From the IMG/VR virus record IMGVR_UViG_3300046820_002180, positions 1-31,820 of that record: 31,820 bases of DNA. One strand, 5' to 3'. This document shows, piece by piece, positions 3,042 to 25,918 of the stretch. Position numbers and translations under genes: made by a program. Below the pieces are notes generated by a model. That model was not told the DNA's origin. It made no database searches and saw only the letters and a list, made by a program, of their open reading frames with translations. This stretch comes from a virus (Duplodnaviria; Heunggongvirae; Uroviricota; Caudoviricetes). Each line of letters begins with the position of its first letter. Position 1 is the stretch's first letter.

Positions 3042-4871
3042 ATGGCAAAAGAAATATCATACGCAACAAGAGATTTTGCAGGTTTAAGAGACGAATTAGT
3101 TTCATTAACTAAAAAGTATTATCCAGAATTAATAAGTAACTTTAACGATGCATCAATTTATTCAGTATTACTTGATTTAAATGCTGCGGTTGCTGATAAC
3201 TTACATTTCCATATAGATAGAGTTTGGCAGGAAACGATGTTGGACTTTGCACAACAAAGACAATCATTATTTCATATTGCAAAAACTTATGGTATCAGAC
3301 TACCTGGTTTAAGACCATCAGTTGCATTATGTGACTTCTCAATTAACGTTCCTGTTAGAGGTGATAAAGATGACGAAAGATATGAGGGTATTCTAAAAGC
3401 AGGGGCTCAAGTTTCAGGTGGAGGACAAATATTTGAAACTCTTGAGGATATTGATTTTTCAAATCCTTTCAATAGTAAAGGTGAACCTAATAGATTAAAG
3501 ATTCCAAATTTTGATAACAATAGTAAATTAATATCATATACAATCACCAAAAGAGAGGCGGTTGTAAATGGAACAACTAAGATTTATAGAAGAGTTATTA
3601 ACGAGGTTGACCAAAAACCATTCTTAAAACTATACCTACCTGAGAAAAACGTTTTGGGTGTTGTTAGTGTAATCCATAAATCAGGAACAAACTATGCTAG
3701 TAACCCTACATATGATGAATTCACAAACGGAAATAAATGGTATGAAGTTAAATCATTAATGGAAGATAGAGTTTTTATTGAGGACGCAACTACCATTTCA
3801 GATACAGATAATTTTAAATCCGGTGACTACCTTAGAGTTGATAATAAATTTATTACTGAGTATACACCTGAAGGTTATTTCAGTGTTACTTTCGGTTCAG
3901 GAAATGTAGACCCAATGGATAATTTGGATAACTATATGAACGGAACTATGAAAGTTAATATAGCAACTTTCCTTAATAATAACTCATTGGGTAACATACC
4001 AAGAGCAAATACCACATTATTCATCAAATATCGTATTGGTGGTGGTAAAGAATCAAATCTTGGGGTTAATGTAATAACATCAATAGATACAATTGATTTT
4101 GCATTAAATGGTCCAAATTCAACAATAAATGACCAAGTATATCAATCATTAAGAGTTACAAATATAACACCTGCAGTGGGTGGTGCTGATTCACCGACCA
4201 TAGAGGAAATTAGAAATATGGTTGCATATAACTTTGCAGCACAAAATAGAGCGGTAACATTAAATGACTATAAATCTTTAATTGAAACGATGCCATCAAC
4301 TTATGGAGCACCTGCTAAGGTTAGTGTGATGGAAGAAGACAACAAAGTGAGAATTAAATTATTATCGTACGATAGTGAAGGTAATTTAACGGATATTGTA
4401 TCTAACACACTTAAGAATAACGTATTGAACTATTTGTCTAAATTTAGAATGTTAAATGATTTCTTAGACATTATGAGTGGTGAAGTTATCGATTTAGGGT
4501 TGGAGGTTGATTTGGTTGTAAATAAAAACGAAAGTCAAAGTGACGTACTAAAAGAAACTGTTAATACTGTAACAAACTTCTTTGCTATCGACAAAAGAAA
4601 AATGGGTGACCCATTATTTGTTGGTGATTTGATGAGAGAAATAGGTAATGTAACAGGAGTTGTGAACGTTGTGGATGTTAGAGTATTCAACAAAATCGGT
4701 GGGAAATATTCATCAGCCGAAATATCTCAAGCTTACAAGGATAATATTACAAAAGAAATATTACAATTCGATTCGACCATATATATGAAATCAAATCAAA
4801 TTTGTCAAATTCGATTCCCACAAAGTGATATTAAAGTCAGAGTAAAAACTTTAACTTCGGCTACATATTAA
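3042..4871 (+). CDS. Baseplate wedge protein, T4 gp6 / baseplate J-like
   Basis: ISYATRDFAGLRDEL, FGSG, YRIGGGKESN, GGADSPTIEEIR, AQNRAVTLNDY motifs of the gp6/J family. Confidence 0.9.
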   Translation: MAKEISYATRDFAGLRDELVSLTKKYYPELISNFNDASIYSVLLDLNAAVADNLHFHIDRVWQETMLDFAQQRQSLFHIAKTYGIRLPGLRPSVALCDFSINVPVRGDKDDERYEGILKAGAQVSGGGQIFETLEDIDFSNPFNSKGEPNRLKIPNFDNNSKLISYTITKREAVVNGTTKIYRRVINEVDQKPFLKLYLPEKNVLGVVSVIHKSGTNYASNPTYDEFTNGNKWYEVKSLMEDRVFIEDATTISDTDNFKSGDYLRVDNKFITEYTPEGYFSVTFGSGNVDPMDNLDNYMNGTMKVNIATFLNNNSLGNIPRANTTLFIKYRIGGGKESNLGVNVITSIDTIDFALNGPNSTINDQVYQSLRVTNITPAVGGADSPTIEEIRNMVAYNFAAQNRAVTLNDYKSLIETMPSTYGAPAKVSVMEEDNKVRIKLLSYDSEGNLTDIVSNTLKNNVLNYLSKFRMLNDFLDIMSGEVIDLGLEVDLVVNKNESQSDVLKETVNTVTNFFAIDKRKMGDPLFVGDLMREIGNVTGVVNVVDVRVFNKIGGKYSSAEISQAYKDNITKEILQFDSTIYMKSNQICQIRFPQSDIKVRVKTLTSATY

Positions 4872-8671: not shown

Positions 8672-10470
8672 TGGAAAAGAGAAAAATTATATTACCTGAA
8701 AAAAGGTTTCACAAAGCATCTTCAGAAGACCAAATCCTCCAAGTTAATTTTGAGGAAGGTAAGAGTTTATTAACTAATGATGATAGAGATATTATTTTAG
8801 ACATTAATGAATTATTTGGTCAAGAAAGAAATGATAGTAAAAGATACAAGTTGTATGGTAAAATAAAGATGGTGTTTAGAAATATGTACAGTGGATTGTC
8901 AAGTTATCTTCCATTGTCTGAAGAGTTAGCATTAGTTGGTGATGGTGATGACGGAGAATTTGATGGTTACTTACCATACAACGAGTTCGCGTTTTTAAGA
9001 AATGATGTGTACAGAGAAAAACCTAATGATATTGATGTTTCAGACTTAAGTACATTTACAGGAATCACCGTAACAAAAACAGGAGACATAACTCACCAAT
9101 TGATTACACCAATGAATGCTCCGTATCACAATTGGAACATTCACGTATCATATGTGTACGACCACGATGAAAACTATCCGATGAAATATACTTTATCGGG
9201 AAATACAACATTAAGTTTTGTCAGCGGTAATGGTATACCATTTAGAATTACCGATAACAACGCAAGTTATAGATTGACAAGTCCTGTTGACCACGGAATG
9301 AGTGAAGGTGAATTTATTATATTAAATGGATATCCATATTATATAAATTCAATTGGTAATGAATATTATAATTCAGAATTATATGTTTTAGATATTTTAA
9401 AATCTCAAATACCATCAGGTACTACAACATTTAATAATACATTAATTACAGGTAAAAGATGTATCGATTCCAAAAACATTTCAGGAACAACATCAACTTA
9501 CTATGTACACAAACATAAAACGGCAACTAATTCTGCGGATTACATTTTAGATAAGGCAGGATTTGAAAGTCCAATATTTGAAGACGAAAGAAAATTAGTT
9601 TTTGAAAACATATCAGGAGCTAACGATGTGTTGGTTGAAAGAAATAGAATGGAATCAGTTCTTTATGATTTTAAAGAACCATTCGTTTTAACAGGACTAA
9701 CCAACAATTTAAATTATGAACCTACAGATTTATATGTAACAATATTATTTAGAAATGGTAATGGTTATTTTGACTATCCACCAAAGGTAGGTTGGAAATT
9801 TAATTTACATAATACTTGGATTGATAATCATTTTAACGGTTCAAATAAAACTCAACCACCGTATGAGTCTGGTTTAGGATTAGGTACATCATTTACAAAA
9901 GGAGGAATTACATTCACTAGTGGAAATACAATACCTGTTGGTACAGTATTAACAGGTGCATTTATAGAGTATAATCCATCGACAATAAAGGAAAGAGTTA
10001 TTTCAGAATCAATGTATAGGTTAACAAACCCAACAAACATTTTCAATTTTAACCAATCAGTTACAGTTGAAGGGTTTTCAGGAGCAACCTCGACAAATAT
10101 GTACGGAGTATTATATCAACCACATTACCGAGTTAAAATTAGAGAACTATCTCCTTATATTGAAACATCATCAACACCCGATATTGAAAATCTACCACAA
10201 AATGCTAAATACTTCCCGTTTGAGAATGTATGGAAATGGAGAGACGTGTATGATTACGGTTATTCGGACGATTTAGGATTTGGAGTGGACTATCCGTTTC
10301 TTAATAATACACACTACGTTAGGAACGATATTAATTTCTATATGAGAAATGAAAAAAATTATCAACACAAAGCTGATGGTATTTTTGATTTTAATGCATT
10401 TATCAATAGATATAATAATAAAAATAACAGATTAGATAGAAATAATTCAAACACAAGTAAAAACTGTTAA
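8671..10470 (+). CDS. Putative virion structural protein (599 aa)
   Basis: TAATG stop/start overlap with both neighbours. Aromatic, beta-rich composition and seven [ST]GxT motifs. Confidence 0.6.
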   Translation: MEKRKIILPEKRFHKASSEDQILQVNFEEGKSLLTNDDRDIILDINELFGQERNDSKRYKLYGKIKMVFRNMYSGLSSYLPLSEELALVGDGDDGEFDGYLPYNEFAFLRNDVYREKPNDIDVSDLSTFTGITVTKTGDITHQLITPMNAPYHNWNIHVSYVYDHDENYPMKYTLSGNTTLSFVSGNGIPFRITDNNASYRLTSPVDHGMSEGEFIILNGYPYYINSIGNEYYNSELYVLDILKSQIPSGTTTFNNTLITGKRCIDSKNISGTTSTYYVHKHKTATNSADYILDKAGFESPIFEDERKLVFENISGANDVLVERNRMESVLYDFKEPFVLTGLTNNLNYEPTDLYVTILFRNGNGYFDYPPKVGWKFNLHNTWIDNHFNGSNKTQPPYESGLGLGTSFTKGGITFTSGNTIPVGTVLTGAFIEYNPSTIKERVISESMYRLTNPTNIFNFNQSVTVEGFSGATSTNMYGVLYQPHYRVKIRELSPYIETSSTPDIENLPQNAKYFPFENVWKWRDVYDYGYSDDLGFGVDYPFLNNTHYVRNDINFYMRNEKNYQHKADGIFDFNAFINRYNNKNNRLDRNNSNTSKNC

Positions 10471-11276
10471 TGAAAGTTTTAAAAAACATTAGAGATAATA
10501 TATTTTTTAATTTAGAAACCAACTTTAAACCTGATTTAGGAAGAGAAGATGCGTTAGAACAATTTGAAAATGAAACAGTAAGGACAATCATTAATCCGGT
10601 TGATAATTACGAAACTATGAGGTTTATACATAAACCTTATTCTGGTATCACATCACATTCTACCGACACTCAATCAGACATTTGGTTTTATTTTTATTTC
10701 TATAATCAAAGTGGAACACATAGTGGTGGGTTAGACTATTCCTTAATTGGTATTGACCATAAGGAAAATGCACAACAATTAATTCACACAACTAAATCGT
10801 TTTTTAGATTGGAATTTTTTATCGTTCCTGACGGAGAAAATCCCGACAGAACAAATAGAAAATTAGTTTTTGCTAAAAATCTTTCATTACCATTAGGTGA
10901 GAAAGTTTTTTACACAGGATTCAATGATTATATAAGTGTACCAATATTCAACGGTTCAAATTATAGAAATAAAGAAAATATGTATCTGTTTTGGTTCCAA
11001 GACGACGACGCGTTCAGAGGAACTATGTTAACAGGAACAACATTTTATATGACGGCTAGATTTTTTAATGGTGAAGATGGAACAGTTTTAAACTTTTCAA
11101 ACACATCATTGGCAACTAACGCTTCAGTTTTAGAATATAGAGATTTATATTATAAGGTAACCATAGACAGGACGGATTATTCTTATCAAGTGTTTAGATA
11201 TTCAGGAACCACAGGAACCAGAATTGGTGAATCGGGAGACCCCATAAAATTTTATGAAATAGTATCTGGAGGATAA
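10470..11276 (+). CDS. Putative virion structural protein (268 aa)
   Basis: TAATG-coupled ORF within the structural operon. Confidence 0.6.
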   Translation: MKVLKNIRDNIFFNLETNFKPDLGREDALEQFENETVRTIINPVDNYETMRFIHKPYSGITSHSTDTQSDIWFYFYFYNQSGTHSGGLDYSLIGIDHKENAQQLIHTTKSFFRLEFFIVPDGENPDRTNRKLVFAKNLSLPLGEKVFYTGFNDYISVPIFNGSNYRNKENMYLFWFQDDDAFRGTMLTGTTFYMTARFFNGEDGTVLNFSNTSLATNASVLEYRDLYYKVTIDRTDYSYQVFRYSGTTGTRIGESGDPIKFYEIVSGG

Positions 11277-12211
11277 TGAATAAAGTAACACATACCATAT
11301 TAAAAACCACAACAGGTCAAACTTTTAATTTACCACTATTTTTAGAACAAAGTATTAAGGATTTGGGAATTATGATTGGGTTTGATGGTAATATTGGTCA
11401 AACTCAACAGATATGTAATTTTACATATAAAGGTAATGGTAATTCAGTTACTGTTTACAATACTGTTAACACAACAAGGTACGGAGCATTAATTGACGCA
11501 ATCTTTACAGTTAAATGGGGAGACGGTGCAACAAGTACACTTACAATGCCGGTTATGAATATCGACGACGTGAGTTTACCAAGTGCTTCACACACATATT
11601 CAAGTAATGGAACATACATTATTGAAGTTACAGTAAGTTCTCCTTGGGACGTTAGAAAGGTAAAAAAGACAATAAAAATCCCCTTTGTTCAATCCTTTGG
11701 GTACCCAACTGATTTAGGGCAATTAACTTTTGACGTTCCGTATAGTGAAGGAGATACACAATCACAAACCTATCTACAAGATTATAGAACCCTAACAGGT
11801 GCCACTAATAGTACCACGGTTACCTTTTTGGGTATTGGTAAAAGTAGAATTGATGAGAAAAAATTATATGGAACAAATGCGGGTTACACAGGGGTAACAG
11901 TTACTTTAGAATATTCAGGATATACAATTGACGGGTTGGTTTATAGAGATTATGAAGATGGGTATACGCATATATCAGGAGTGACTTCAGGAACCACAGA
12001 AACATTTTTTCAAGACGAAATCTACAACGGAATGATTACAAGAAATGAACATTTTTTAGGATTTGTAGACGACCCACAAATTTTTTCAGATGTTTTTGTT
12101 GAGAGAGGACAGATGGGAGTTATGGAAAGAAACTTCAGATTGACCGAAATGGACAACACAGGAGAATTAGATGTTTATGGAAATGGATATTTTAAAGTAC
12201 GAAAACAATAA
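11276..12211 (+). CDS. PKD-like domain-containing virion protein (311 aa)
   Basis: FTVKWGDGATST...SASHTYSSNGTYIIEVTV matches the PKD signature (WGDG...HTY..G.Y). TAATG-coupled. Confidence 0.7.
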   Translation: MNKVTHTILKTTTGQTFNLPLFLEQSIKDLGIMIGFDGNIGQTQQICNFTYKGNGNSVTVYNTVNTTRYGALIDAIFTVKWGDGATSTLTMPVMNIDDVSLPSASHTYSSNGTYIIEVTVSSPWDVRKVKKTIKIPFVQSFGYPTDLGQLTFDVPYSEGDTQSQTYLQDYRTLTGATNSTTVTFLGIGKSRIDEKKLYGTNAGYTGVTVTLEYSGYTIDGLVYRDYEDGYTHISGVTSGTTETFFQDEIYNGMITRNEHFLGFVDDPQIFSDVFVERGQMGVMERNFRLTEMDNTGELDVYGNGYFKVRKQ

Positions 12212-12240: not shown

Positions 12241-13149
12241 ATGGCAGTAGGAAGTTACGGAACTATAAGACCTGCGGATGTTTCACCGGCCGATGTTGAT
12301 ATATATTATCACTTCGTTTCGGGTAGAACCGCTAGTACAGAAGTTCAATTTGAGAAGATAGATAACTCACAAGATATATTAACACCTGTATTCCACAATG
12401 ATTCAACAGGTGGTAATTCAGGTACTGAACTATTGGGTGGTATGTATAACCTAAAACTAGAATCATCAAGATTCTCTGAGTTGGGTATATATACATTATA
12501 CTTGAGACCAAAACAAATCAGAACAGTTGTTTCTGATTGTGGTGTATTGTCATCATTACCATCGGTTAGAGGATTGATTATTGACATTTCCCAAATCGAC
12601 GCTGGCGACACTAACAAATTTACACCCCAAGGTTTAGTAGGTTACCGAGTTGAGTACTTGGATGATTCAGGTGCTAAGATTCCTAATTTTTTTAGAATTG
12701 TTACCTCATCTTTTTACTGTGAACCAGTGTTATCGAATTTAACAAATTCATCACAAAAAGCAATTAGATACAGATATTCTGATATAACAACAAACTTAAT
12801 GTTTTTGACATTAACACCAAGCTCTTCACCGTCTAGTAGACCTAATACCATACCATTTATTGGTCAACCAAATCAAAATATCATTCTAACAAATACACAT
12901 TTTAATCCTGTTATGTTAGAAGTTGAAATGGTAGAACACGATGCAACAACATTGGCACACGCACTTTACGGTAATCAAAGTAAGTCGGTTGTTGATGGAA
13001 TTTACACGATTTATGACCAAAATAATAATATCTATAAGCAGTTTAACTTATACGAAATTAAAGACGATATTAACGAGACACTATACGAAATAAGAGAGAA
13101 GAATGATAATATCGACGAAACATTAAATTTTGATGTTATAACTCAATAA
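12241..13149 (+). CDS. Putative virion structural protein (302 aa)
   Basis: Clean ORF with an A-rich leader, TAATG-coupled to the 2137-aa gene. Confidence 0.6.
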
Positions 13150-16100
13150 TGGCTAAAATAACAAGAAAGGTCCCATATCAGGCGGCTAGTGGTGGTGAAA
13201 CGTTCAATGACAAGCTCATCGGTTTACAAATAACTGATGGTTCTAGTCAATTGGCCAATACCCAATTCCTTATTGATAGAGTAATTCCTGAAAAAGACAG
13301 TAAGACTTTTCACACACAACCATTTTCTGATTTCCTTACTTTAGATACATTAAAAGAAGAAACGAATTCAATTTATGATAATAACTCTACAGGTATTAAT
13401 TTACCTGATAGAAGTAAAAAAATTAAATTTCATAATTCTAAAAACGATGCGTCAAAATCTTTATTTGGTTCCTTATCAACAAGATTAAATGGTGCGGTTG
13501 GGAATATCATCGAAAGTTTTCCTGCCGCGTTATTGGTTGACGTCGACTCACCAGTTTCATCAACTAATGTTAGTGCGGTATTAACGGGTGCAACTCTCGG
13601 GTACGACCCAATTTCAAACACCACACAATTCCAATTTAAAAAATCTTTAATTTACAATCCATTTGATATTGTTATTCAAAGACCTCAAGGGGTTGAAGTT
13701 TTACAATCAACTAATTCATATAGAGATTTTTATTCATCATATACAAAATATGTGGTGGATAACCTCAGTGGTTCAACATATGAAATCGTTTCATACGAAG
13801 AACCTGATAATGATGGTTTTATTACATTAAAAGTAAAAGGATATTGTTTCGGTGGATATTCAATCTACACTGATAACTTTTTAATTAGACCAAATAATGG
13901 TGTAACTGAAGAATTCTTCAATAGTCTTGATGAATTAGAAACCGTATTATTAGATAGAGAATCAACACCCAAATATACCGCAGCATTTAGAATACCGACA
14001 GATTTATATGATGGAGCAGTCACAGAATTACAAAGTGAATTTGCAACTTGGCCATTAAGTCGAGATGGGTGGAACATACAAATAGTTGGTCTTGATTACG
14101 AATCATACGTTTCCGAATTAAGTAATATAGGTAATATTGTTGACGATTATAAATCAAACTTAATCATTAGATTTATGACGTCACCGCAACTTTATGAATT
14201 CGATACTGAAGGAAAAAAGGCGGAGGCAATCTTCCAACTTTATGGACAGAGTTTCGATAAGGTAAAGAAGTTTATTGACAATATTGCGTTTATGAGAAAT
14301 GTTAGCTATGATAAAGCTAACAACGTACCTGACGTATTGTTAAAAAATTTAGCGGAAACATTAGGTCTATCAACAGTCAATCTTTATGATGAAAAGTCAT
14401 TAGAAGAAACTCTTTATACAAGACATACTTCACAATACGAAGGACTTAATATAGGTGCTAATTTATTAGAGGGTGAGTATGAATTTTACAGAAGATTAAT
14501 TGTAAACCTTGCACAATTATATAAATCAAAAGGTACAAGATTAGCGATTGAATTCTTTTTAAAATTCATCGGTGCTCCTGAACCTATGATAAGGTTGGAT
14601 GAATACATCTATCGAGTTGATAGTTTACTACCAAAGGCCACATATGAAAATGATATTAGAGATGTAATCAATGGAGTAAAAGAATTTCAACACGTTGAGT
14701 TTGTACCATTTGCACAAACAATTGATGGTGTTGATTACAATGCATACACTTATAGATTGGTGACCACATCTGGTTCAACCGTACTATCAAGAAGTCAATA
14801 CCCTGTAACAACTGATGGATTACCGAGAGGATTGGAAAGTTCCGATGGTTCATTGTATTTTGCAATGGGTGCCGGTTGGTATAGAAAAACATTAGACCAC
14901 AGGTCTGGTGATATCTTAGACGTTGAAAATTCAGTACTTACGGGTAATACTAAAGTTCTTAAAACAAAATCAAAACCATTTACATATGGTGAAGATTATT
15001 TTAATAACTACAGAAAATTACCTGGTTTAGATTATGGTTACGATTTAAACATCGAAATTGATAATAGAAAAACTGAAGTATTAGATGACGATGGTAATTT
15101 TACATATAAATTAAACAGAAAAAATATTAATATTTTCTTAGATGGTTCAAGAGCAATCGATTATGACATCTATAGAAAAAGTAGAAACTTAACGTTGACT
15201 TTTGGTACTTTACCACCACAGGAAAGACCATCATTCGCCGAGTTTTTAAAAGAAGCGGTTAGTCAAGTAATTAGAAATTCAAGTACAATTAAGTACAAGA
15301 AAGAATACAGACTATTAAAACAAGTCTATGAATCGTATGTAAATAGCGTTTCATTTACACCGTACAATTACATTAAAATAAATGAATTTATTCAAAGAAT
15401 GAGTCCATATTGGGTTAATGTAATTGACCAATTCGTTCCTGCAACGACCCAATGGTTGGGAGGTAACTTAATAGAAAACGGAATATTCGGTAGGTCTAAA
15501 TTCCAATACAAACAACCTTGTACACCAAAAGAATTTGTTGAGGTATTATATCCTGATTTCGAAACTGTAATTGAGGAAGACTTAGAAACAATTTTAGGTG
15601 GAGGGACTACATCATATGAAAACGCATCCAATGAAGATAGTCTAAGAGGATTATTTTCATTTAGCGGTTTAACATATACAATTTATTTAAACATAAATGG
15701 TAATATCTATTCAGGAACAAGTTCAAACTTACGTTCAGAGCTTTTCTCAGGATACACACCAACGGTTAGATGTACTTCATTAACTCAAACATCTTTATCT
15801 GTTCCATTAATTTGTGATTACAAAAATTGGATTAATTTAAATTTACCATTAATTAAAAACAAATGGAAAGAAACATTAACAAATTTAGTACAAACAATTA
15901 ATAGTCAAATAACTCAAGACAACTATGGTTGTATTGATGATTATGCACCATACACGGCAAAGACACAAACAGCGAATTGTTCTCAAATTTATAAAAAGAC
16001 ACTTTCGTTAGAATATTTCTTAGATATTGATGGTGTTGAAAAGGTAAGATTTACATTAGATACTACCGATTGTAGAAACGGTGAAGATATTGATTTTTAT

Positions 16101-19100
16101 TTTGAACCGAATTATGGTTTAGATAAAGACGAATGTAATTTAAGAGTTGAATTGTCAGGACCGGCAATACCATATCAAGGAGTTACAAAAAATTGTCAAT
16201 TAGTTGAAGACGTATACATAACTGTTACAGGAGTAACAACAGGTGTTGAAAATAATGGTATTTGGGATTTAAACATATACGTTACAAGTGGAACAACTTG
16301 TAACTCGGGTGTATGTACTGATTGTGATTTTATTGAAATCAATGACCCTAAACCAATTAAGAGAGCAATATATGCTGACGATTTACAGTTAGTTACTTGT
16401 ACATATATCATCCCTAATGTTAAAGAAACAGACGTATATGATATTATTGTTTCCGACGCCGCAAACTGTGAACAAAAATTTAGAATTGAAGGATTACAAC
16501 AAAAGATAGTTAAAATTTCTGATGAAGTAAGTGGTTATACTATAAATCCAAAAGTTCAATACAAAACATCTTTCGATTATGGTATAAAGAAAGGGACCGA
16601 AATTTACAAATATATTTCAGGGTCAGTTCCAACAACTTGGCAAGGACTACAAAGTACTCTATCATCTGGTGGAGTTGTTGAGACATCAATCGAAGATATT
16701 GAAATAGGTGACACGATTTTAAGTATAAGTCAAAAAGATTGTAATTTACTTCCAACGGAAATGTTTAAGTTCGTTGAGAGTAACGGTTATCAATTTACCT
16801 TTGATTATTCATTAATAAAAGTAGTAAGAAAAGAATGTTTAAGTTCAATTAAGAAAGATGTTATTAATGGTGAGTTTGAAGTGTTACCAACAAGTAAAGT
16901 TTTGGTATACACTAACATTAATGAATACTTAGAAACTGTTCCATATCATTTTACATACAAATATCCTGAAGATTTATTTGTAAGACCTGAACAACCTGAA
17001 GTACCTTGTTGTGAATATCCTGAAGGACATTTTCAGAGTGGAGACTTTATGATAAGTCAATACGGTTTTCCTATTGAGGTAACAAGTGTTGATTTAAATT
17101 ATTGTAATAGAGGAATTTACTACACATTAGTAACATCAGGAACTTCAATCAATTCAGATACAATCTTATTTAATGGACCTTCAAGTGGTATTAATAGAAT
17201 TGTTGTGTCAACTAAAAATGATTCAGCATTCATTAGTCCATTTACAGGAAATAAATTTGAGTGTTTAGATATTGATACTCAACAATATTATTTAGGTTAT
17301 GAATGTGATAACGTACCGAGTGTTGAAAGTTTATTAAGATTAACAGGTTGTACCGATGGTAATTGTACTCAAGTACAGGCAGGACCAAATACACAAAGGT
17401 CATATATTGCTGAAGATACTACACCAACACCAACACCTAGTCCAACTCCAACTCCTACACCGACCCCTACAGGTACACCTACACCTACACCTACACCGAC
17501 ATCAACACCTACACCGACTAGTACTCCCACACCTACCGCAACAGGTACACCTACACCAACACCAACAATTACCCCAACACCTACCGCAACAGGTACACCT
17601 ACACCAACACCAACAATTACCCCAACACCTACCGCAACAGGTACACCTACACCAACACCAACAATTACCCCAACACCTACCGCAACAGGTACACCTACAC
17701 CAACACCAACAATTACCCCAACTCCTGTTTGTAACTTTAATGTGGGTGTAATTTTAGTATCGTCAACCCCAACTCCAACACCTACATCAACATCAACACC
17801 AACACCAACGCCTGTTTGTGACTTTAATGTAGGGGTTACTATTATAGCTTCAACACCGACTCCAACACCTACATCTACACCGACCCCAACTCCAACACCT
17901 GTTTGTGATTTTAACATAGGTGTTAACATTATTGCATCAACTCCAACTCCTACACCAACACCTACGAGTACTCCAACTCCTACCCCAACACCAACACCTA
18001 CACCGGTTTGTGATTTCGGTATTGGAGTGATAGTTATTGCATCTACACCAACTCCAACACCTACACCAACACCAACTAACACACCTACCAGTACTCCTAC
18101 GCCAACTCCGACACCTACACCAACTCCGGTTTGTGAATTTGGAATTGGAGTAACGATTATTGCATCTACACCAACACCAACACCCACTCCAACTAGTACA
18201 CCAACTAGTACTCCTACCAATACACCAACTGTAACTCCAACACCTACACCGGTTTGTGAATTTGGAATTGGAACAATTATTATCGCATCAACTCCAACAC
18301 CTACACCTACTAGCACACCAACACCGACAGCGACTGCTACACCAACACCAACTGCAACTGCAACTCCGACATCAACACCAACTAGTACACCAACTAGCAC
18401 ACCGACACCAACGGCAACTCCAATATGTGAATTTGGAATTGGAACAATTATTATCGCGTCAACACCGACTCCTACACCTACTAGCACACCGACTAATACA
18501 CCAACGCCAACACCTACAAGTACACCTACACCAACTGCCACAGGTACACCTACACCTACACCAACTAGTACACCAACTAGTACACCAACTAGTACACCAA
18601 CTAGTACGCCAACACCAACTGCAACTCCGGTTTGTGAATTTGGAATTGGGGTGATAGTTATTGCATCAACTCCAACACCTACACCTACAAGTACACCTAC
18701 ACCAACTGCAACTCCAACCGCAACTCCAACATCAACACCAGTACCACCTACAGAAACTCCTACACCTACACCAACAAGTACACCAACACCAACAAGTACA
18801 CCAACACCAACAGCTACAGCAACTCCAACGCCAACTGCAACTCCAATATGTGAATTTGGAATTGGTGTGGTAGTTATTGCTTCGACCCCAACACCGACCC
18901 CAACTAATACACCAACTAGCACACCGACCCCAACGCCGACTAATACACCAATACCAACTGACACTCCAACACCGACACCTACTAATACACCAATACCAAC
19001 CGACACACCAACGCCAACACCAACTAACACACCTACTAATACACCAATACCAACCGACACACCAACGCCAACACCAACTAACACACCTACGCCAACACCA

Positions 19101-19562
19101 ACTAACACACCTACCCCTACACCAACAGAGACCCCAACACCTTGTGTGGCGACTATTACTAATACAAGTAACCCAACAAGTTGTGGATTTAACGCTGACG
19201 GTTCATTAACATTAAATGGTTCAGGTGGGGTTGGTCCGTACACGTATTATTTATATGAGGACACAACATTCCCTTATGAAACATCGGGAGGTAGTGTTTA
19301 TCCTGGATTCCCTGTAACTAACCAAACAGGTGGTTACAATGTAACAGGATTAGTACCTGGTGGATATTACTTAAGAATTGTAGATGCGAACGGATGTGAA
19401 GACTTTAGTGAAGTTGTGGTATTACCATATGACGACACTACTTGTGTGACCCCACCACCAACAACATATTTCTGTAAAGAAAATGAAATGAGTCCTTGTC
19501 TTGAACAAGTAAGTCCTTGTACCGGAAGCCAAATAGTTTGTACACAATTTGAACAAGTTTAA
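13149..19562 (+). CDS. Giant baseplate wedge protein (gp7 / P2 gpI-like region) fused to a degenerate Hint domain, a Thr-Pro stalk with nine Cys beads, an SprB-type repeat and a Cys-rich tip
   Basis: [14 protein letters not shown]...[28 protein letters not shown] is the P2-I/gp7-type signature. Hint-like blocks at 16581-17219, TP region at 17418-19142, SprB-like repeat from 19143. Confidence 0.75.
16581..17219 (+). other. Degenerate (probably catalytically dead) Hint/intein-like domain inside the 2137-aa protein
   Basis: Ordered blocks [42 protein letters not shown]...[26 protein letters not shown]...DTILFNG...IVVSTKN follow the Hint pattern. Cys1 is replaced by Gly, the TxxH His is missing and there is no HN. 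Confidence 0.6.
17418..19142 (+). repeat. Thr-Pro (mucin-like) coding repeat, about 575 aa, interrupted by nine P[VI]CxFx[VI]Gxx[ILV][IV][AS]S units
   Basis: ACN-CCN codon repeats. Cys codons at 17730, 17817, 17904, 18009, 18132, 18255, 18426, 18633 and 18849. Confidence 0.97.
17529..17720 (+). repeat. Perfect tandem repeat, 4 x 48 bp ([16 protein letters not shown])
   Basis: Unit acacctaccgcaacaggtacacctacaccaacaccaacaattacccca at 17529, 17577, 17625 and 17673. Confidence 0.95.
19143..19430 (+). other. SprB-type repeat domain (Bacteroidota adhesin-like)
   Basis: [25 protein letters not shown]...[18 protein letters not shown] matches the SprB repeat pattern SC...DGSI....SGG..PYTY...GL..G.Y...V.DANGC. 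Confidence 0.8.
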
Positions 19563-19590
19563 GCCTTTAGAATTATAATAAAAAATAAGA

Positions 19591-19597
19591 TATTTAT
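19591..19597 (+). promoter_or_regulatory. TATTTAT motif, putative late promoter of the Hint + 228-aa cassette
   Basis: 22 nt upstream of the ATG at 19620. Confidence 0.55.
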
Positions 19598-19619
19598 ATA
19601 AAACAAAACAAGCGCTAAA

Positions 19620-20123
19620 ATGAAAAATAATCAAAAAGGATGTTTAATCCAAGGAACATTAATCTCAATGGCTGACGGAACTTCAAAATTAATTGAAGAA
19701 GTTGTTGTTGGTGATGAAGTTAAATCAATTAAATTAAATCAAGAAGCTGGAGTATTTGAAGAAGTTGTAGGTACTGTTGTTGAATTACAACAAGCTGAAA
19801 CTGAATTAGTATACTCAATAAACAATGGTTTAATCGTTGCATCTGAAGACCATAAACATATTGTTAGACAAAAAACACCAGAAGGTGATGCGTACACTGA
19901 AAGATGGATTGTATGTGACACTACTTTTGTTGTTGCTGATGATAAAATGATGGGTGCGGATGGTATTGAAATTGAAGTAACGGATAAAGAAGAGGTTACA
20001 GGAACTAAAACAGTTCATAACTTAGTGATAGAAAACCATAACACATTTATTGCAAATGGTGTTATAACCTATAACGAGATTTTACCTGAGGTAACGGAAG
20101 AAGAAACTCCGGCAGGAGAGTAA
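19620..20123 (+). CDS. Free-standing Hint (bacterial intein-like, BIL-type) domain protein
   Basis: G|CLIQGTLISMADG, IEEVVVGDEV, block B ASEDH, block F/G VHNLVIENHNTFIANGVITYN. The Hint spans residues 8-152, with a 7-aa N-flank and a 15-aa acidic C-flank. Confidence 0.88.
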   Translation: MKNNQKGCLIQGTLISMADGTSKLIEEVVVGDEVKSIKLNQEAGVFEEVVGTVVELQQAETELVYSINNGLIVASEDHKHIVRQKTPEGDAYTERWIVCDTTFVVADDKMMGADGIEIEVTDKEEVTGTKTVHNLVIENHNTFIANGVITYNEILPEVTEEETPAGE

Positions 20124-20141: not shown

Positions 20142-20828
20142 ATGTTAGCAAGATTTTATTTATCAGGACCATTTTCAGCATCGACATTGTCTGATAATTT
20201 TACAATAGTGGGTAACCCTGGTAATTACATAACCACGGGTGTAACAAAGTCACAAATGCAATATCCTTCATATAAAGAGATTGTATTTCTCGATTCAGTG
20301 ACAGGAGGTACAGTTACCGCAGTTGGTGGTACTTGTAACGGAACATCAGTAAATTGGTCCGTGATTCAAGCAACCCCAACCCCAACACCAACACCAACTC
20401 CAACACAAACACAAGGAGATGGATTATGTTACAGTTATGAAGTTAGTGATACTGTAAATCAAAATAATTATGGTGTAAGATATACTGACCCTAACGTTGG
20501 TACAAGTCAAGATGTTAAATTTAATATGTTACCGGGAGATGATGGTAATAGTTTTACAACATTCAACATATGTAGTACTGTTGACCCAACATTACTTGAT
20601 TACACAGGAGGTTCTCCTACTGGTGTTGGTTCGGTACCTGGTGTGGCACGTTTTGGTGGTCTTACTCCTTGTGAATCATCTTTTGATTGTACCACACCAC
20701 CAGCAACTGAATACTGTTATGTGAACGGACAATCTGTAGTAGTGGGACCTTTCTCTACATTACAAGAATGTCAAGCAGCTGCAGGTTCTTTTGTATGTAA
20801 CCAATGTGTTGGTACTCCACAACCTTAA
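20142..20828 (+). CDS. TP-linker, Cys-rich modular protein (228 aa), putative virion decoration/adhesin
   Basis: Small N-domain with a single Cys, a TP linker, a module shared with the next gene and a Cys-rich tip. No signal peptide. Confidence 0.7.
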   Translation: MLARFYLSGPFSASTLSDNFTIVGNPGNYITTGVTKSQMQYPSYKEIVFLDSVTGGTVTAVGGTCNGTSVNWSVIQATPTPTPTPTPTQTQGDGLCYSYEVSDTVNQNNYGVRYTDPNVGTSQDVKFNMLPGDDGNSFTTFNICSTVDPTLLDYTGGSPTGVGSVPGVARFGGLTPCESSFDCTTPPATEYCYVNGQSVVVGPFSTLQECQAAAGSFVCNQCVGTPQP

Positions 20829-20853
20829 AAGTATAATTAAAATTTATAAAATT

Positions 20854-20881
20854 AAACCCCTTTATTTTAAGGGGTTTTTTT
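20854..20881 (+). terminator. Rho-independent terminator
   Basis: AAACCCCTT-TATTTT-AAGGGGTTT followed by a T run. Confidence 0.85.
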
Positions 20882-20913
20882 ATGGTTTATTTTTAATAAA
20901 AAAAAGGATATAC

Positions 20914-20920
20914 TATTTAT
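20914..20920 (+). promoter_or_regulatory. TATTTAT motif, putative late promoter
   Basis: 5 nt upstream of the ATG at 20926. Confidence 0.6.
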
Positions 20921-20925
20921 GTATT

Positions 20926-22656
20926 ATGGGATTAGTAATTAGACTGCACGACATTGTATCACCTAGTGTGAGCGGGTTTACCGTTTCATATAAAGAAGGT
21001 AGTTCACCATACCCAATGAATAGTGGGTATATCACATATGCAGATTTTCCATCAGGAACATCCACAGTTAATATTAGTGGAGTAACATTAAATTTTAATA
21101 GTAATTATTGGGTTAAAATTACCGATAAATTTACAGGTAGATATATTATTGAGAATATTGAGACGAATGACCCAATTGCTTATATGGACTGTTGTCCTCA
21201 ACCAGTTGGTTTAGGGGCAGTTTGTTATCATAGTTGTTACCCACCAACAATTAATAGTATTACTTGTGTTGGATTGGTACCACCGACAGCAACTCCGACT
21301 CCGACTCCGACTCCGACTCCGACTCCTACACCAACAGCAACTGTAATAGGACCAACCGCCACCCCAACTCCAACTCCTACAAGTACCCCCACACCAACAC
21401 CGACACCAACAGAAACAGGTGATAGTTGCTTGTGTTATTGCGTCACTTATGATGTGAATGATTTACCAAATGACTTATATGTTAGATACTCTGTTTGTGG
21501 AACTGCGAGTGTTGAAACAGAATTAATTTCTGCAATAGAAAGTATGGATAATGGTGATGGAACCACAACTGCGTGTATTTGTGTGAAACAAGGTGGGGCA
21601 TATTCAACACCGGTATGTGTACAGGGAGGTCTTGAAATACTTTGTCCTGAGGGAGTTACTTGGTCAATGGGTAGTAGTTGTACATCATCCGCCACTTGTT
21701 TTATAGTGAGTGACCCTACACCAACAGCAACCCCAACTCCAACCCCTACACCTACAGCAACCCCAACACCTTATTATTTATTATTAAGTCGTTGTGATTC
21801 TGCACCAAATACAGTAACAGGATGGACTATGAATGCGTACACACAATCACAAATAATGGTTGGCGATATATTCTATTCTGCTGGACAATATTATTATCAA
21901 GTGATTAATTATCAAACAGCACAACCAAATCCTGCAGGTATTATAGATGGTACTAAGTCAAATGATTACACATCTTGCGACCAAACACCCGGACATTATG
22001 TTGCACCAACACCTGACCCAGGACAATCAATATTAATTCATATAGGACAAACATTTAGTAACACAACCCAACCTTGTGCAATGTATGAATCTGCAATTGC
22101 AACCAATAGTGCTACGGTATACTTAAATGGACATAACATACCGGTTAATGGTGATTATGCATATAACACCGCCGCTTGTAATGTTGGTGATGAATATAGT
22201 GGTAACTCTAATTACTATGCTGCACTTGCTAATAGTACTAGATATACATTTACAATTGGAAGTGGGGGATATATTAATAACGTTACAGCTTGTGGAGCAA
22301 TACCAACAGCAACTGCGACTCCTACACCAACTCCTACCCCGACCTCTATACCATTAGTTGGATTGTTTAAGTCACAAGGATTGTTAGAATTTAATAGTCA
22401 TTGTGGTAATAACTATTTAATCAATAGTCCATTCTATGGTGAAACAACTTCAATTAATAGTTTATACGGAACATACGTATATTCAGACACAAACTACACA
22501 CCACTTGATGGTGAAAGTAAATGGTATGCGGTAGGTAGTGATGACCAAGCGAATACTTCAGATTTACCATACTACTCAGTACAAATTGCGGGTAATGGCG
22601 AAGTAACAAGTGTTCAATACATAACAAGCTGTTCTGGTGGAGGAAGTCAGGCATAA
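20926..22656 (+). CDS. TP-linker, Cys-rich multi-module protein (576 aa), putative decoration/adhesin
   Basis: Start revised from 20791 to 20926 (MGLVIRL), because the longer version overlaps the previous gene and crosses a terminator. Several TP linkers separate the modules. Ends CSGGGSQA. Confidence 0.75.
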   Translation: MGLVIRLHDIVSPSVSGFTVSYKEGSSPYPMNSGYITYADFPSGTSTVNISGVTLNFNSNYWVKITDKFTGRYIIENIETNDPIAYMDCCPQPVGLGAVCYHSCYPPTINSITCVGLVPPTATPTPTPTPTPTPTPTATVIGPTATPTPTPTSTPTPTPTPTETGDSCLCYCVTYDVNDLPNDLYVRYSVCGTASVETELISAIESMDNGDGTTTACICVKQGGAYSTPVCVQGGLEILCPEGVTWSMGSSCTSSATCFIVSDPTPTATPTPTPTPTATPTPYYLLLSRCDSAPNTVTGWTMNAYTQSQIMVGDIFYSAGQYYYQVINYQTAQPNPAGIIDGTKSNDYTSCDQTPGHYVAPTPDPGQSILIHIGQTFSNTTQPCAMYESAIATNSATVYLNGHNIPVNGDYAYNTAACNVGDEYSGNSNYYAALANSTRYTFTIGSGGYINNVTACGAIPTATATPTPTPTPTSIPLVGLFKSQGLLEFNSHCGNNYLINSPFYGETTSINSLYGTYVYSDTNYTPLDGESKWYAVGSDDQANTSDLPYYSVQIAGNGEVTSVQYITSCSGGGSQA

Positions 22657-22679
22657 TGAAATAAAATTATAAATAAAAA

Positions 22680-24113
22680 ATGGCAGTAGCAAGCATAACG
22701 GTTAATTACACGGCGAGTTGTACAGGATGTACACAAGAATATAGGTATGCCCTTAGTAGTGGTAATATCAATACCGCTACAGTTATACCATATTCAGGTT
22801 CGTCACCTATAGTCATTACAGGTTTAACGACGGGTAATTCGTATGTTTTTCAAATGAGAAATGTGTGTGAATTAATTTCAAGTGATTGGACAAGTGTACA
22901 AACCGTAACCTGTGAAGGAGTAATAACACCTACAGCCACACCTACAGCCACACCTACAGCAACTCCTACTCCTACACCAACGGCAACTGTGGCGGGACCT
23001 ACTGCAACACCAACACCTACACCTACTCCGACCGCAACTATTGCAGTACCAACCCCAACCCCAACACCGACCCCTACATTGAATATAGTTGACCCTGAAG
23101 ACCCAATAGTATATTATTACTATGCTTTAGGTAATTGTAATGATATGAGATACTCAGGTACCGAAACGACTGTTTTTGGTATTGGAGCACCATTAGTGGT
23201 TCCTGTTTGTATGACCTCTGCACAAATTACTCAATGGTATTCTACAGCTAATTTTGCACAACAATCGTTAAGTATTGATTACGACGACCCTTGTGGTTTT
23301 GGTGATAACTATTCGGGAGTTGCCATTGGTAGAAGTACCACACAATTAACAGAAGGAACAGTTTATCTTGTTGGTAACAATTGTTTATCAATTGTTGCAG
23401 TTGAAACACAATACGTTCAAAATTGGAGCGTGAATTTAGATGGAATCTCACCAATAGGTGGTGATAATCCTTGTGGAGCTTGTGACCCACCATTTACAGG
23501 ATATACACTTGCAGGATATAGTGGTGTGACTTGTGATACAGGTGAAAATATCCTTGCGGTATCAATACTTGGTAGTTTAGTGGTGGGTAATGAATATGGA
23601 ATACAATTGTATAGTGGGAATACTCCTATGGCCAATACTAGATGTATGACTATCAACGCCAATCTTGGTCCTCAACTTACTCTTACGGACCCAATAAATA
23701 ATCCATATTCAGGACATCATATCACAGATGGAGGACCATTTGTGTTAGGACAACCAATATTCCAAGGATATACCGATTGTGGAACTTGTAATGCAACACC
23801 TAAAAAATATAAAATAGATGGAGTAAGGTGTGACAACTCTCAATATAGTGTAACTGTATGGTCAAATACATTACCAACAATTGGAATTAACGATACGTTT
23901 AGAGTTAATGATTCATTCTTAAACACATTCTGTTGGAAGGTAATAGCAAAAGATAATTATAAAACAGTAGTATATGGATATCCTGAATATAGTATTTTGG
24001 ATACAGGATGTTCACCTTGTGACGGAACCCCACCAACAACACCAGCACCTACTCCAACCGATAGTGGAGGAAGTGGAGGTAGTGGAGGAAGCTCTGGAGG
24101 ATACAGCGGTTAA
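22680..24113 (+). CDS. FN3-like N-domain + TP linker + three Cys-rich repeats (477 aa), putative adhesin
   Basis: ITGLTTGNSYVFQMRNVC...SDW is FN3-like. Three repeats end in CxxC (CGAC, CGTC, CSPC). Gly/Ser tail. Confidence 0.75.
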   Translation: MAVASITVNYTASCTGCTQEYRYALSSGNINTATVIPYSGSSPIVITGLTTGNSYVFQMRNVCELISSDWTSVQTVTCEGVITPTATPTATPTATPTPTPTATVAGPTATPTPTPTPTATIAVPTPTPTPTPTLNIVDPEDPIVYYYYALGNCNDMRYSGTETTVFGIGAPLVVPVCMTSAQITQWYSTANFAQQSLSIDYDDPCGFGDNYSGVAIGRSTTQLTEGTVYLVGNNCLSIVAVETQYVQNWSVNLDGISPIGGDNPCGACDPPFTGYTLAGYSGVTCDTGENILAVSILGSLVVGNEYGIQLYSGNTPMANTRCMTINANLGPQLTLTDPINNPYSGHHITDGGPFVLGQPIFQGYTDCGTCNATPKKYKIDGVRCDNSQYSVTVWSNTLPTIGINDTFRVNDSFLNTFCWKVIAKDNYKTVVYGYPEYSILDTGCSPCDGTPPTTPAPTPTDSGGSGGSGGSSGGYSG

Positions 24114-24127
24114 AAAAAATTAAATAT

Positions 24128-24772
24128 ATGGGAACATTTAATAGAGAAGCTAATTTAAACGATAGTGTTTTTTTTCAAAGAGGAGTTGTTAAAACAACAA
24201 ATCATTGGACAAGACCATCGTATCAAAAAGTCTATGATTTTTTATTTAATTTATATCTTAAATCAACAATCATTAAAGATTATGATGTTTATTTAATGGG
24301 AGGAGTTTTATTTGATTTCAATAACACTTGGGATTTAGATATGTGTCTTGTCGGAGGTAACCACACTGATGAAAAAATAGAAAAAGATTTAAATTTTATG
24401 ATGGATATGGGATTAAATCAATTTAATCTATTATTAGATGTTACTTGGTATGAACAAAGACCATCCAATTTAAGATATGACCAAATGGTTGAAAACGAGT
24501 TTAAACCGGACAATATTATTCACAAAAAAATAGGATATACCAAAAAACAAATTAATAATGAATTTGAAGAAAAAGATTTAAGAAATGACTCAAACTTTAT
24601 TTTATTGAGTGACTATTTGGTTCAAGGAAATTATGGAGTAAATGGTAGACATACCGAAAAAATGATAAATAAAGTTCAAAATAACACGAAACCGGAAACA
24701 ATAACAACATTTAGTGTTATGGATTTTTTAAAAGAAAATGAAAGTTATTTCCATTCTAACACAAATAGATAA
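24128..24772 (+). CDS. Pol-beta-superfamily nucleotidyltransferase-like protein (214 aa)
   Basis: VYLMGGVL-x6-WDLDMCL gives the hG[GS]...DxD motif. The third acidic residue is in LLLDVTW. Confidence 0.7.
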   Translation: MGTFNREANLNDSVFFQRGVVKTTNHWTRPSYQKVYDFLFNLYLKSTIIKDYDVYLMGGVLFDFNNTWDLDMCLVGGNHTDEKIEKDLNFMMDMGLNQFNLLLDVTWYEQRPSNLRYDQMVENEFKPDNIIHKKIGYTKKQINNEFEEKDLRNDSNFILLSDYLVQGNYGVNGRHTEKMINKVQNNTKPETITTFSVMDFLKENESYFHSNTNR

Positions 24773-24784
24773 AATAAAAAAACG

Positions 24785-24791
24785 TATTTAT
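24785..24791 (+). promoter_or_regulatory. TATTTAT motif, putative late promoter
   Basis: 5 nt upstream of the ATG at 24797. Confidence 0.6.
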
Positions 24792-24796
24792 ACTAA

Positions 24797-25918
24797 ATGG
24801 CACAATTAATATTAACTTGGTCACCACCGGCAGATTGTAGCGGATGTACTTACGAATATAGGTATAAGTTATCAAGCGCATCGACGTATGTGACAGGTGC
24901 AACTAGTAATACTATTGTGACTATTAATGGATTAATTGATGCACAAACATACAATTATAGTGTTAGGACTATATGTCCTGATGCTGGTGGTAATTTAAGA
25001 AGTAGATGGTTAAATAATAGTTCAGTTACTTGTAACACGAATCCACCATTACAACCCACACCTACACCAACAATTACCCCAACACCTACCGCAACGGGTA
25101 CACCTACACCAACCCCTACACCGACAGCAACGGTATCGGCACCAACCGTAACTCCGACCCCTACACCGACTCCTACTCCTACAACAACTGTTGGTTCTTG
25201 TTTAAGTGGTACATTAGAAGCTACAGGTAATTGTTCGGGTTATGAGTCGTCAACATTTACATTAGCAAGTGGATATCAAGCAACAATTACACCATCGGGA
25301 TATTTCTTTAGTGGTACAGGAACAAGATATGCATATGCTTACTTAAGAACAAACACAGGTACAAATATTCAAGAGTTTATATTAACACAAACTAACAGTA
25401 ATACTCCAACTTTTTCACCTGCAACATACACAATCACAACACCGGGAACATATCAATTATATGGTCAACAGGTCAATTGTGGTCAAAATGGTGGAACAGG
25501 TGGTTCAGGTCTTATTAAATTAACTGTTGGTAATTGTCAAGTTTTATCAACCCCAACACCGACCCCTACACCAACGTCAGCACCTTTAAATAGATTTTAT
25601 GTAGCCTCACCGGTTGCTGATATTGATACAACATATTGTGTTTCGCCTGGTTATGTATTAACAGGTGCACTATGGTCATATGCAACTACAGTAAGTGGTT
25701 TAATGAATCAACAAGTTTATATTGACCAATATGGTGATGATGTGTTCGTTGGAGTAGATGGTTATAAGTATGGAATTTCTTTAACAGCGGGAATAAATAC
25801 ATATACTGATGGAACATCTAACTATTATTTAATTCAAATCGACCAATATGGGTATGTATATAATGTACTAGCACCAAATTGTGGTACTTCTGGAGGTGGA
25901 GGTGATATACCACTATAA
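24797..25918 (+). CDS. FN3-like N-domain + TP linkers + two modules (373 aa), putative adhesin
   Basis: LTWSPP...CSGCTYEYRYK...INGLIDAQTYNYSVRTIC is paralogous to the N-domain of 22680-24113. The C-module resembles the last module of 20926-22656. Ends CGTSGGGGDIPL. Confidence 0.75.
   Translation: MAQLILTWSPPADCSGCTYEYRYKLSSASTYVTGATSNTIVTINGLIDAQTYNYSVRTICPDAGGNLRSRWLNNSSVTCNTNPPLQPTPTPTITPTPTATGTPTPTPTPTATVSAPTVTPTPTPTPTPTTTVGSCLSGTLEATGNCSGYESSTFTLASGYQATITPSGYFFSGTGTRYAYAYLRTNTGTNIQEFILTQTNSNTPTFSPATYTITTPGTYQLYGQQVNCGQNGGTGGSGLIKLTVGNCQVLSTPTPTPTPTSAPLNRFYVASPVADIDTTYCVSPGYVLTGALWSYATTVSGLMNQQVYIDQYGDDVFVGVDGYKYGISLTAGINTYTDGTSNYYLIQIDQYGYVYNVLAPNCGTSGGGGDIPL

Follow-up and report, generated by a model that had tools for sequence, protein, structure and literature searches.

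Low-complexity linkers in the receptor-binding proteins of phages tend to be regarded as nothing more than passive spacers, and the locus described in this work raises the question of why one of these linkers should carry a conserved motif and an ordered gradient of spacings. The locus lies in a stretch of viral DNA of 31,820 nucleotides (hereafter, the window), the first 31.8 kilobases (kb) of the 159.8-kb IMG/VR virus record IMGVR_UViG_3300046820_002180. In this window the gene P0001 (13149..19562, + strand), delimited from the list of open reading frames and its translation, encodes a giant protein of 2137 amino acids (aa) that carries a Thr-Pro stalk of about 575 aa (aa 1422-1996). The completeness of the record was judged to be about 48%; therefore, the source is probably a jumbo phage. 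The guanine plus cytosine (GC) content of the window is about 33%, and the same stretch is present in freshwater metagenomes from several studies. The region is best explained as the coding sequence for the distal stalk of an adhesin that is anchored in the baseplate of a freshwater jumbo myophage.

An initial annotation of the window had described nine copies of a 14-aa motif (the beads) in this stalk, and a regular expression for the motif matches exactly nine times in frame, between positions 17724 and 18884. On the + strand, these matches place bead 1 at 17724..17765 (from aa 1526), bead 2 at 17811..17852 (aa 1555), bead 3 at 17898..17939 (aa 1584), bead 4 at 18003..18044 (aa 1619), bead 5 at 18126..18167 (aa 1660), bead 6 at 18249..18290 (aa 1701), bead 7 at 18420..18461 (aa 1758), bead 8 at 18627..18668 (aa 1827) and bead 9 at 18843..18884 (aa 1899). 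The Cys-to-Cys periods that had been reported (29, 29, 35, 41, 41, 57, 69 and 72 aa) were reproduced and never decrease along the chain; of the 8! ways to arrange these eight periods, just 4 give a non-decreasing series (p about 1e-4). The directional drift of the bead sequence was also as described, from CNFNV through CDFNV, CDFNI and CDFGI to CEFGI, this last form being present five times. Thr and Pro make up at least 80% of the residues in every linker between beads. The array is real and statistically unusual, and it is conserved across a large group of uncultured phages.

Repeats in a DNA of this composition could be a by-product of slippage or mis-assembly of a low-complexity region, lacking any function, with an order given by luck or inheritance. 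Certain features of the locus agree with this possibility: the stalk is formed by microsatellite-like ACN-CCN DNA, short-read assemblies break in it, and the local duplication of units preserves an order that was inherited. We nevertheless regard this explanation as largely refuted and hardly credible, in the first place because unitigs from two studies support all the bead-to-bead intervals. The short-read unitigs from the best sample (run X1) cover seven of the eight intervals with zero differences, and those from a second study (run X3) span 18396-18948, including the interval that is absent from X1; therefore, the order and the spacing of the beads are supported. In the second place, the units are 20-25% diverged as DNA and the residues of the beads are conserved. 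Pairs of beads show 2-8 synonymous differences per 14 codons, with P, C, F and G invariant, and the whole units of 87, 123 and 171 base pairs (bp) are only 75-80% identical at the DNA level, as determined with Tandem Repeats Finder. Because of these synonymous differences and this degree of identity, the bead units are old, and they are neither fresh slippage nor assembly copies. In contrast to the bead units, the bead-free tracts that flank them hold young repeats. With the same program, a 48-bp tandem repeat was found in the proximal spacer (17505-17726; 4.6 copies, 95%) and a perfect 54-bp repeat in the distal tract (18975-19090; 2.1 copies, 100%), and these young repeats also agree with a product of slippage. 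The near-perfect repeats at 17559-17692 and 19005-19060 are unbridged in X1, so that the copy number at these two places is less certain. It was also observed that a 15-kb Logan contig from run X5, another freshwater sample, matches the window up to 17439, continues with 47 other letters, and then matches 18762-18812 near the end of the contig; we read this join as a repeat-induced break or as a strain variant with a much shorter stalk, and not as evidence against the assembly.

A check that had been proposed for the array was the conservation of the Cys in homologous stalks. Hydrophobic islands in the Thr-Pro stalks of the homologues were picked by hydrophobicity, without using any motif, and 369 of the 375 islands (98%) have a Cys, whereas 332 carry the sequence C-x-F. 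From 247 distinct beads the consensus T-[PE]-[ND]-C-[DE]-F-[DE]-[VI]-[DT]-[VI]-[DN]-[VI]-x-T-P-T-P-T was obtained, with Cys in 100% of them, Phe in 91%, and Val or Ile at positions +4, +6 and +8. The bead is thus an amphipathic strand motif of 12-14 aa that has one face composed of C/F/V/V/V and the other polar and mostly acidic. The beads of the window depart from this pattern in that they are less acidic and have Gly at +3 and +5; the Cys, the Phe and the aliphatic face are retained. The number of beads per protein is bimodal: 46 proteins have none, 12 have one and 38 have from 5 to 16, and arrays of two to four beads almost never occur. The module is found on at least three different anchors, i.e. 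one of 1400 aa, one of roughly 200 aa (P0130, P0143, P0128) and one of 65 aa (the 661-aa protein of locus L004), as well as on several others. P0130 comes from a related phage (locus L005), in whose baseplate cluster its gene lies 9 kb upstream of the one for the P0001 homologue. Two proteins are encoded in this cluster upstream of the homologue (10001-12184, 15992-19741): P0130, with a constant period of 23 aa, and a 1249-aa cadherin/SprB protein.

The proteins with beads share a common layout that consists of an anchor, a bead-free Thr-Pro spacer, the bead array, often a bead-like cap strand, and a domain of adhesin type. The spacer that precedes the array has 66-119 aa in 17 of 20 representatives and 51, 13 and about 105 aa in the remaining three; the cases of 13 and 51 aa begin inside the stalk and look N-terminally truncated. 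The cap strand, LDC-x-F-x-A-x-F-T-E, is located at the junction of the stalk and the distal domain in several relatives. A profile of two 23-aa units detected 29 representative clusters with E up to 0.001 among 1.84 billion, a figure that is probably an undercount given the composition filtering and that was not used for the size of the family. No Pfam family, PHROG, PDB entry or literature description was found for the bead motif. The comparison with these relatives showed the beaded stalk to be one instance of a conserved and selected module, and the bead provides a simple signature that could be used to annotate tail and adhesin proteins of the viral dark matter without a Pfam or PHROG match.

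Whether homologous stalks keep the length gradient was the second check that had been proposed, and the answer was affirmative. The gradient is kept in 37 of the 38 arrays with at least five beads, which widen from the N- to the C-terminus (positive Kendall tau of position versus spacing, mean 0.64; 143 rises, 69 falls and 86 ties), and it is absent from one related family that has a constant period of 23 aa. Because of this family, the gradient is common but not obligatory. When lineages were defined by bead consensus and anchor and one representative was taken from each, 19 of the 20 representative lineages, which are not fully independent, gave a positive tau, none a negative one, and one was flat; among these representatives the mean spacing was 30 aa in the first half of the array versus 42 aa in the second half. 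Typical series are 31, 31, 39, 39, 49, 49 and 21, 27, 27, 37, 37, 47, 47, 47, 63. The closest homologue of P0001 shows the series 23, 25, 29, 35, 41, 41, and has the run 29, 35, 41, 41 in common with the window. In long arrays the spacing rises and then reaches a plateau at about 45-55 aa. The periods never fall below 17 aa, and the minimum of an array is most often 23 aa.

The arrays turn over fast. For instance, two proteins with identical N-termini differ by one inserted unit, and in pairs of proteins with 70-93% identity the proximal spacings are common and the distal ones differ. In the stalks of P0035, P0044 and P0047 the spacings come in equal pairs (31, 31, 39, 39, 49, 49) or alternate (31, 49, 31, 49; 43, 57, 43, 57; 47, 63, 47, 63), which suggests that two beads are often duplicated together, or that a pair of beads is the structural unit. 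The N-to-C increase is seen whether the steps measure 6 or 10 aa and whichever anchor bears the array; since it survives the turnover and these changes of step and anchor, it argues for a constraint on position, and not for luck or inheritance. The initial annotation had considered random slippage an improbable origin for an ordered gradient, and the almost universal Cys of the islands together with the widening of nearly all the arrays favours selection instead. For a by-product lacking function, the presence of the Cys in 98% of the islands and a gradient that is reversed in none of the lineages, despite the fast turnover, are difficult to accommodate. A neutral model in which older units have longer linkers also found no support, given that neighbouring units of all lengths are about equally diverged (in the range of DNA identity mentioned above) and the distal beads are, if anything, more alike; the lack of an age gradient in the divergence between neighbouring units also counts against the absence of function.

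With regard to what the beads do, the initial annotation had offered a β core within one chain, a staple between the chains of an oligomer, and docking sites for donor strands. The reading that we tentatively prefer, possible although short of probable, is that they bind side by side in register as a β-ladder, most likely within one chain. Stacking in register is proposed because each strand position is occupied by the same residue from one repeat to the next. Beads in register would form ladders of Cys, Phe and aliphatic residues, and the stalk would fold into a small cross-β core from which the Thr-Pro linkers would project as loops of graded size. The tightly spaced proximal beads would nucleate this core, and later beads, docking on an existing template, could tolerate longer loops; linkers that grow by repeat slippage would then do so distally, and this tolerance would yield the N-to-C gradient, which need not serve any purpose itself. 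Once lysis has released the virions into oxic water, disulfides between the aligned cysteines could lock the core. The bimodal distribution of the bead number (none, one, or at least five) suggests a cooperative unit. In favor of the pairing of beads with each other, the 23-aa unit has about the length required for a parallel crossover, with some 10 aa for the strand and some 12 aa for a polyproline-type return. In a prediction with AlphaFold2 run without alignment, all six tested beads were placed in paired strands with a mean predicted local distance difference test (pLDDT) of 45.5, which we take as a hint only. Within the 160 kb of this genome record no second protein with beads was found, and the fact that P0001 is the only carrier was counted in favor of the pairing of beads with each other. 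The distal domains of the family (SprB, cadherin, F5/8-C, laminin-G and vWA-like) are of the kinds that are usual in single-chain adhesins, and this was counted in favor of one chain.

Several points weigh against a β-ladder within one chain. The only structural model of the array, that of AlphaFold2, has low confidence. Loops of 45-60 residues between neighbouring strands would be entropically costly, and the Asp ladders that would result on the polar side of the beads in most relatives would be mutually repulsive in the absence of bridging cations. Arrays with odd and with even numbers of beads occur, so that a complete disulfide pairing inside the array is not general, and the family with a constant 23-aa period indicates that the module works without a gradient. 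In addition, the long bead-free spacer and the changing bead type suit nodes between chains at least equally well.

These last two features bring in a different arrangement, possible but rather less likely in our opinion, in which the identical beads of several baseplate copies of the protein (three, or six round the axis) pair with one another and zip the stalks together. The chains would converge by means of their long bead-free spacers, and disulfides would lock the nodes after lysis; the unequal, widening spacing and the changing bead types would enforce the register and would make the stalk progressively less stiff between its base and a floppy tip. In agreement with such staples, a bead-free spacer of 66-119 aa, equivalent to about 20-35 nm when extended, precedes the array in most lineages, the bead subtype changes along the arrays in the same order among relatives, and non-periodic spacing is the rule; identical strands in register would also account for the position-specific conservation. 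Disulfide networks in phage tails, in which cysteines could tie chains, have precedents (PMC10811340, PMC13576161). Against the staples, the domains at the tip are of kinds normal on single chains, and the anchor gives a weak hint of a core like that of gp7/P2-I/TssG, a protein that in T4 has one copy per wedge. Moreover, one bead would suffice to staple the chains, yet arrays of two to four beads almost never occur, and arrays with a constant period do exist.

The beads could also pair with a different protein. According to this explanation each bead would be a free edge strand that completes the fold or the sheet of another virion protein, the candidates being the small N-domains of the Thr-Pro proteins encoded nearby (228, 576-621, 477 and 373 aa); up to nine accessory adhesins could be carried in this way, and the distal part of the stalk would offer them more space. 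The genes of four accessory Thr-Pro proteins in fact lie just downstream, a bead-like cap strand is present at the start of the distal domain in relatives, and the N-domain of the 228-aa protein, for which the lone Cys reported in the initial annotation was confirmed, is conserved beside the closest homologue, which is also beaded (51% identity with the N-domain encoded by the gene that follows this homologue). Nonetheless, we consider docking of this kind decidedly unlikely. The beads vary strongly between relatives, in the polar face and in the second half, and a partner would have to co-vary with them; bead arrays are also present on small proteins that themselves resemble accessory adhesins (P0130 and the 661-aa protein of L004); and no partner family that tracks the presence of beads was found in the few loci inspected.

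The acidic face that alternates with the hydrophobic face in most beads suits yet another explanation, according to which the beads would be independent sticky or rigid patches that bind a ligand or cations by means of the acidic D-x-D-x-D face, or that break and stiffen the tether. Patches would provide weak, multivalent contacts with particles or with the surface of the host, and the gradient would just indicate where slippage is tolerated. The distal part of the array is the variable one, and the length of the stalk and the number of beads shift quickly between near-identical phages, as such patches would allow. However, an isolated strand of 12 aa with an exposed C/F/V/V/V face is unlikely to remain unpaired, the invariant Cys and Phe are hard to explain by a cation patch, and the beads of the window have lost most of the acidic residues (Gly at +3 and +5) and keep C, F and the aliphatic face. 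For these reasons we find this explanation quite improbable. The idea that the beads are strands of a membrane β-barrel was set aside, since the loops are all long and there are no alternating short turns.

Taking up again the pairing of beads with each other, a more speculative proposal can be formulated, which we consider unlikely. The locus would encode a new phage adhesion organelle, a register-coded zipper in which the widening linkers would dictate the order in which strands with Cys and Phe ladders close on one another, whether these belong to a single chain or to the several copies on the baseplate, and disulfides formed in oxic water would lock them after lysis. Under a pull on the tip adhesin, the resulting compact knot or cable would pay out tether stepwise, starting with the distal loops. 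If the beads do self-assemble, they would be a compact natural example of length- or register-coded protein assembly, of possible interest for phage structural biology and protein design. A motif and a gradient that survive rapid turnover point to an unrecognised structural principle in the tails of uncultured freshwater and marine jumbo phages.

Several known systems share one or more features with this stalk. The PT boxes are Pro-Thr linkers of bacterial glycoside hydrolases, e.g. CenA and Cex of Cellulomonas fimi. As in these linkers, the stalk is an extended low-complexity Thr/Pro tract with slippage-prone repeats that parts an anchoring (there, catalytic) portion from a binding domain. 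In contrast with PT boxes, which are uninterrupted and much shorter, the stalk has about 575 aa and carries Cys-led hydrophobic strands at graded intervals; its composition is that of a Pro/Thr-rich linker, but the nine conserved beads set it apart from a pure spacer. In the gel-forming mucins MUC2, MUC5AC and MUC5B, a Pro/Thr/Ser (PTS) stalk is likewise punctuated by Cys-bearing hydrophobic elements, which are thought to cross-link or compact the polymer. The CysD domains of mucins fold independently, have about 110 aa and 10 Cys, and belong to glycosylated eukaryotic proteins, whereas the beads have 12-14 aa and one Cys and are unable to fold by themselves; the PTS plus CysD arrangement may be taken as the nearest architectural analogy, and no homology is implied.

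A residue that is fixed in position in each repeat also characterizes β-solenoids, as in the Asn ladder of pectate lyase or in the Cys-containing 12-aa coils of the Tenebrio antifreeze protein. In these proteins the coil is near-constant and the turns are short, whereas the linkers of the stalk are pure Thr-Pro, of 15-60 aa and graded; the period is far from constant in the window (29-72 aa), and some relatives do show a constant one of 23 aa. With the shafts of T4 gp37 and gp12, which contain His-x-His metal sites, the stalk shares a periodic conserved residue that could tie chains along an adhesion organelle, but those shafts are folded trimeric β-structures throughout, whereas the stalk is mostly of low complexity. 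The initial annotation had also likened the bead to the terminal strand of HYR/Ig-like domains; this likeness did not find support, as no Pfam domain was detected in the stalk and 14 aa are too few for a domain, although profiles cannot judge the likeness of a single strand. The SprB adhesins of Bacteroidota (PF13573) resemble P0001 in one SprB repeat that is located only at the tip, and not in the beads. The host of the phage is probably one of the freshwater Bacteroidota.

The remaining parts of P0001 are all encoded on the + strand. The N-terminal anchor (aa 1-1421; 13149..17411) is globular and conserved, as judged by homologues that align with it over about 1400 aa. According to the translation, it is followed by the proximal bead-free Thr-Pro spacer of 104 aa (aa 1422-1525; 17412..17723), and the bead array is followed by the distal bead-free Thr-Pro tract (aa 1913-1996; 18885..19136). 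The tip (aa 1997-2137; 19137..19562) consists of a SprB-type repeat (Pfam PF13573) and a Cys-rich tail. The SprB match, at aa 2004-2039, reached 28.5 bits versus a cut-off of 28 (E 1.2e-6), a marginal pass of the gathering score; the closest homologue has, by eye, two SprB-type units. A Pfam scan of the whole P0001 with E up to 0.1 returned no family, and none in the stalk.

For the anchor (the first 1420 aa) there are more than 200 metagenomic homologues with 40-58% identity, in contigs of up to 350 kb. The length of the homologues ranges from 1344 to 2974 aa, with a conserved anchor and a variable C-terminal extension; the precomputed Pfam matches on these extensions include laminin-G, F5/8-C, DUF285, cadherin and SprB, and vWA-like domains were recognized by eye on several relatives. 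Searches by megablast and tblastn with the anchor and with the stalk plus tip gave no match to a cultured phage in 50,697 phage records. No PHROG matches the anchor by sequence, and PHROGs gave nothing useful for ten neighbouring proteins; a PDB sequence search with an 18-sequence profile of the anchor gave only a match at chance level. An AlphaFold2 model of aa 1-845 was of modest quality (pLDDT 58). The best structural matches of aa 462-777 in this model were small baseplate wedge proteins (9cuy_P, 9gtp_E, 8kea_c, 9gb2_M, 8v3w_N and 9ki1_a, from PhiTE, a Streptomyces contractile system, cyanophage A-1(L), phiCD508, diffocin and Mu), with 61-102 aligned residues and VIA-align Z values of 5.3-6.5, which are under the noise guide of the tool. 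Foldseek with the N-terminal model returned nothing at E below 0.001. In the Atlas feature search the only lead was PF23786 (Baseplate_wedge), with a score of 0.86. Tail_P2_I appeared below threshold (E 0.26), and among 49 homologues Tail_P2_I and Gp7_helical were each matched once (E about 0.25).

The gene context is in line with a role in the baseplate. The giant gene is placed together with a GPW_gp25 gene (2585-3040) and a Baseplate_J-like gene (3042-4871, weak match), both upstream of it, with five further genes in between; the order of the genes around the anchor is also kept in three other loci (L002, L003 and L005). The wedge proteins T4 gp7, P2 gpI, Mu gp48 and TssG are likewise encoded in a baseplate cluster after gp25-like and J-like genes, although P0001 is ten times longer than P2 gpI. 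P0001 is, in our view, a structural protein of a baseplate cluster, and a gp7/P2-I-like core is no more than hinted at. Apart from the gp25-like and the weak Baseplate_J-like proteins, the window encodes a ribonucleotide reductase, a primase-like protein, a phosphoesterase, and a series of large proteins without family matches. In L003 (13048-15300), the stalk-less homologue P0011 (1348 aa) is followed by an in-frame open stretch past the stop codon that encodes small Cys-bearing domains and a very long bead-free Thr/Ser/Pro tract, and that ends in a run of N; this stretch may represent a stalk gene in its own right, or a form produced by a split or by read-through.

Directly after the giant gene, a free-standing Hint-like protein of 167 aa is encoded (19620-20123), with weak Pfam matches to Hom_end_hint and Hint. 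This protein begins with G and then CLIQGTLISMADG. A mimicry of its first strand by the beads was discarded, given that CLIQGTLISMADG, judged by eye, corresponds to the usual block A of Hint proteins and is unlike C-x-F-x-V. In L002 the gene that follows the homologue encodes 209 aa and matches the 228-aa protein, without a Hint-sized gene at that place. The four downstream neighbours of the window (228, 576-621, 477 and 373 aa; 20142-25918) have short Thr-Pro linkers between Cys-rich domains, and no beads.

Two additional observations concern the repetitive DNA of the stalk. A 624-aa open frame runs opposite to the stalk on the minus strand (17369-19243) and coincides with the C-rich ACN-CCN repeats, where the GC skew goes down to -0.5; most likely it is a by-product of low complexity and not a gene. 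In the proximal spacer, three perfect copies of the 48-bp unit start at 17559, 17607 and 17655, and the unit recurs at 25064-25113 with 49 of 50 bases identical; this second place, 7.5 kb downstream, falls within the linker that the 373-aa gene encodes. The sharing of this repeat by the linkers of the two genes suggests a recent exchange between them.

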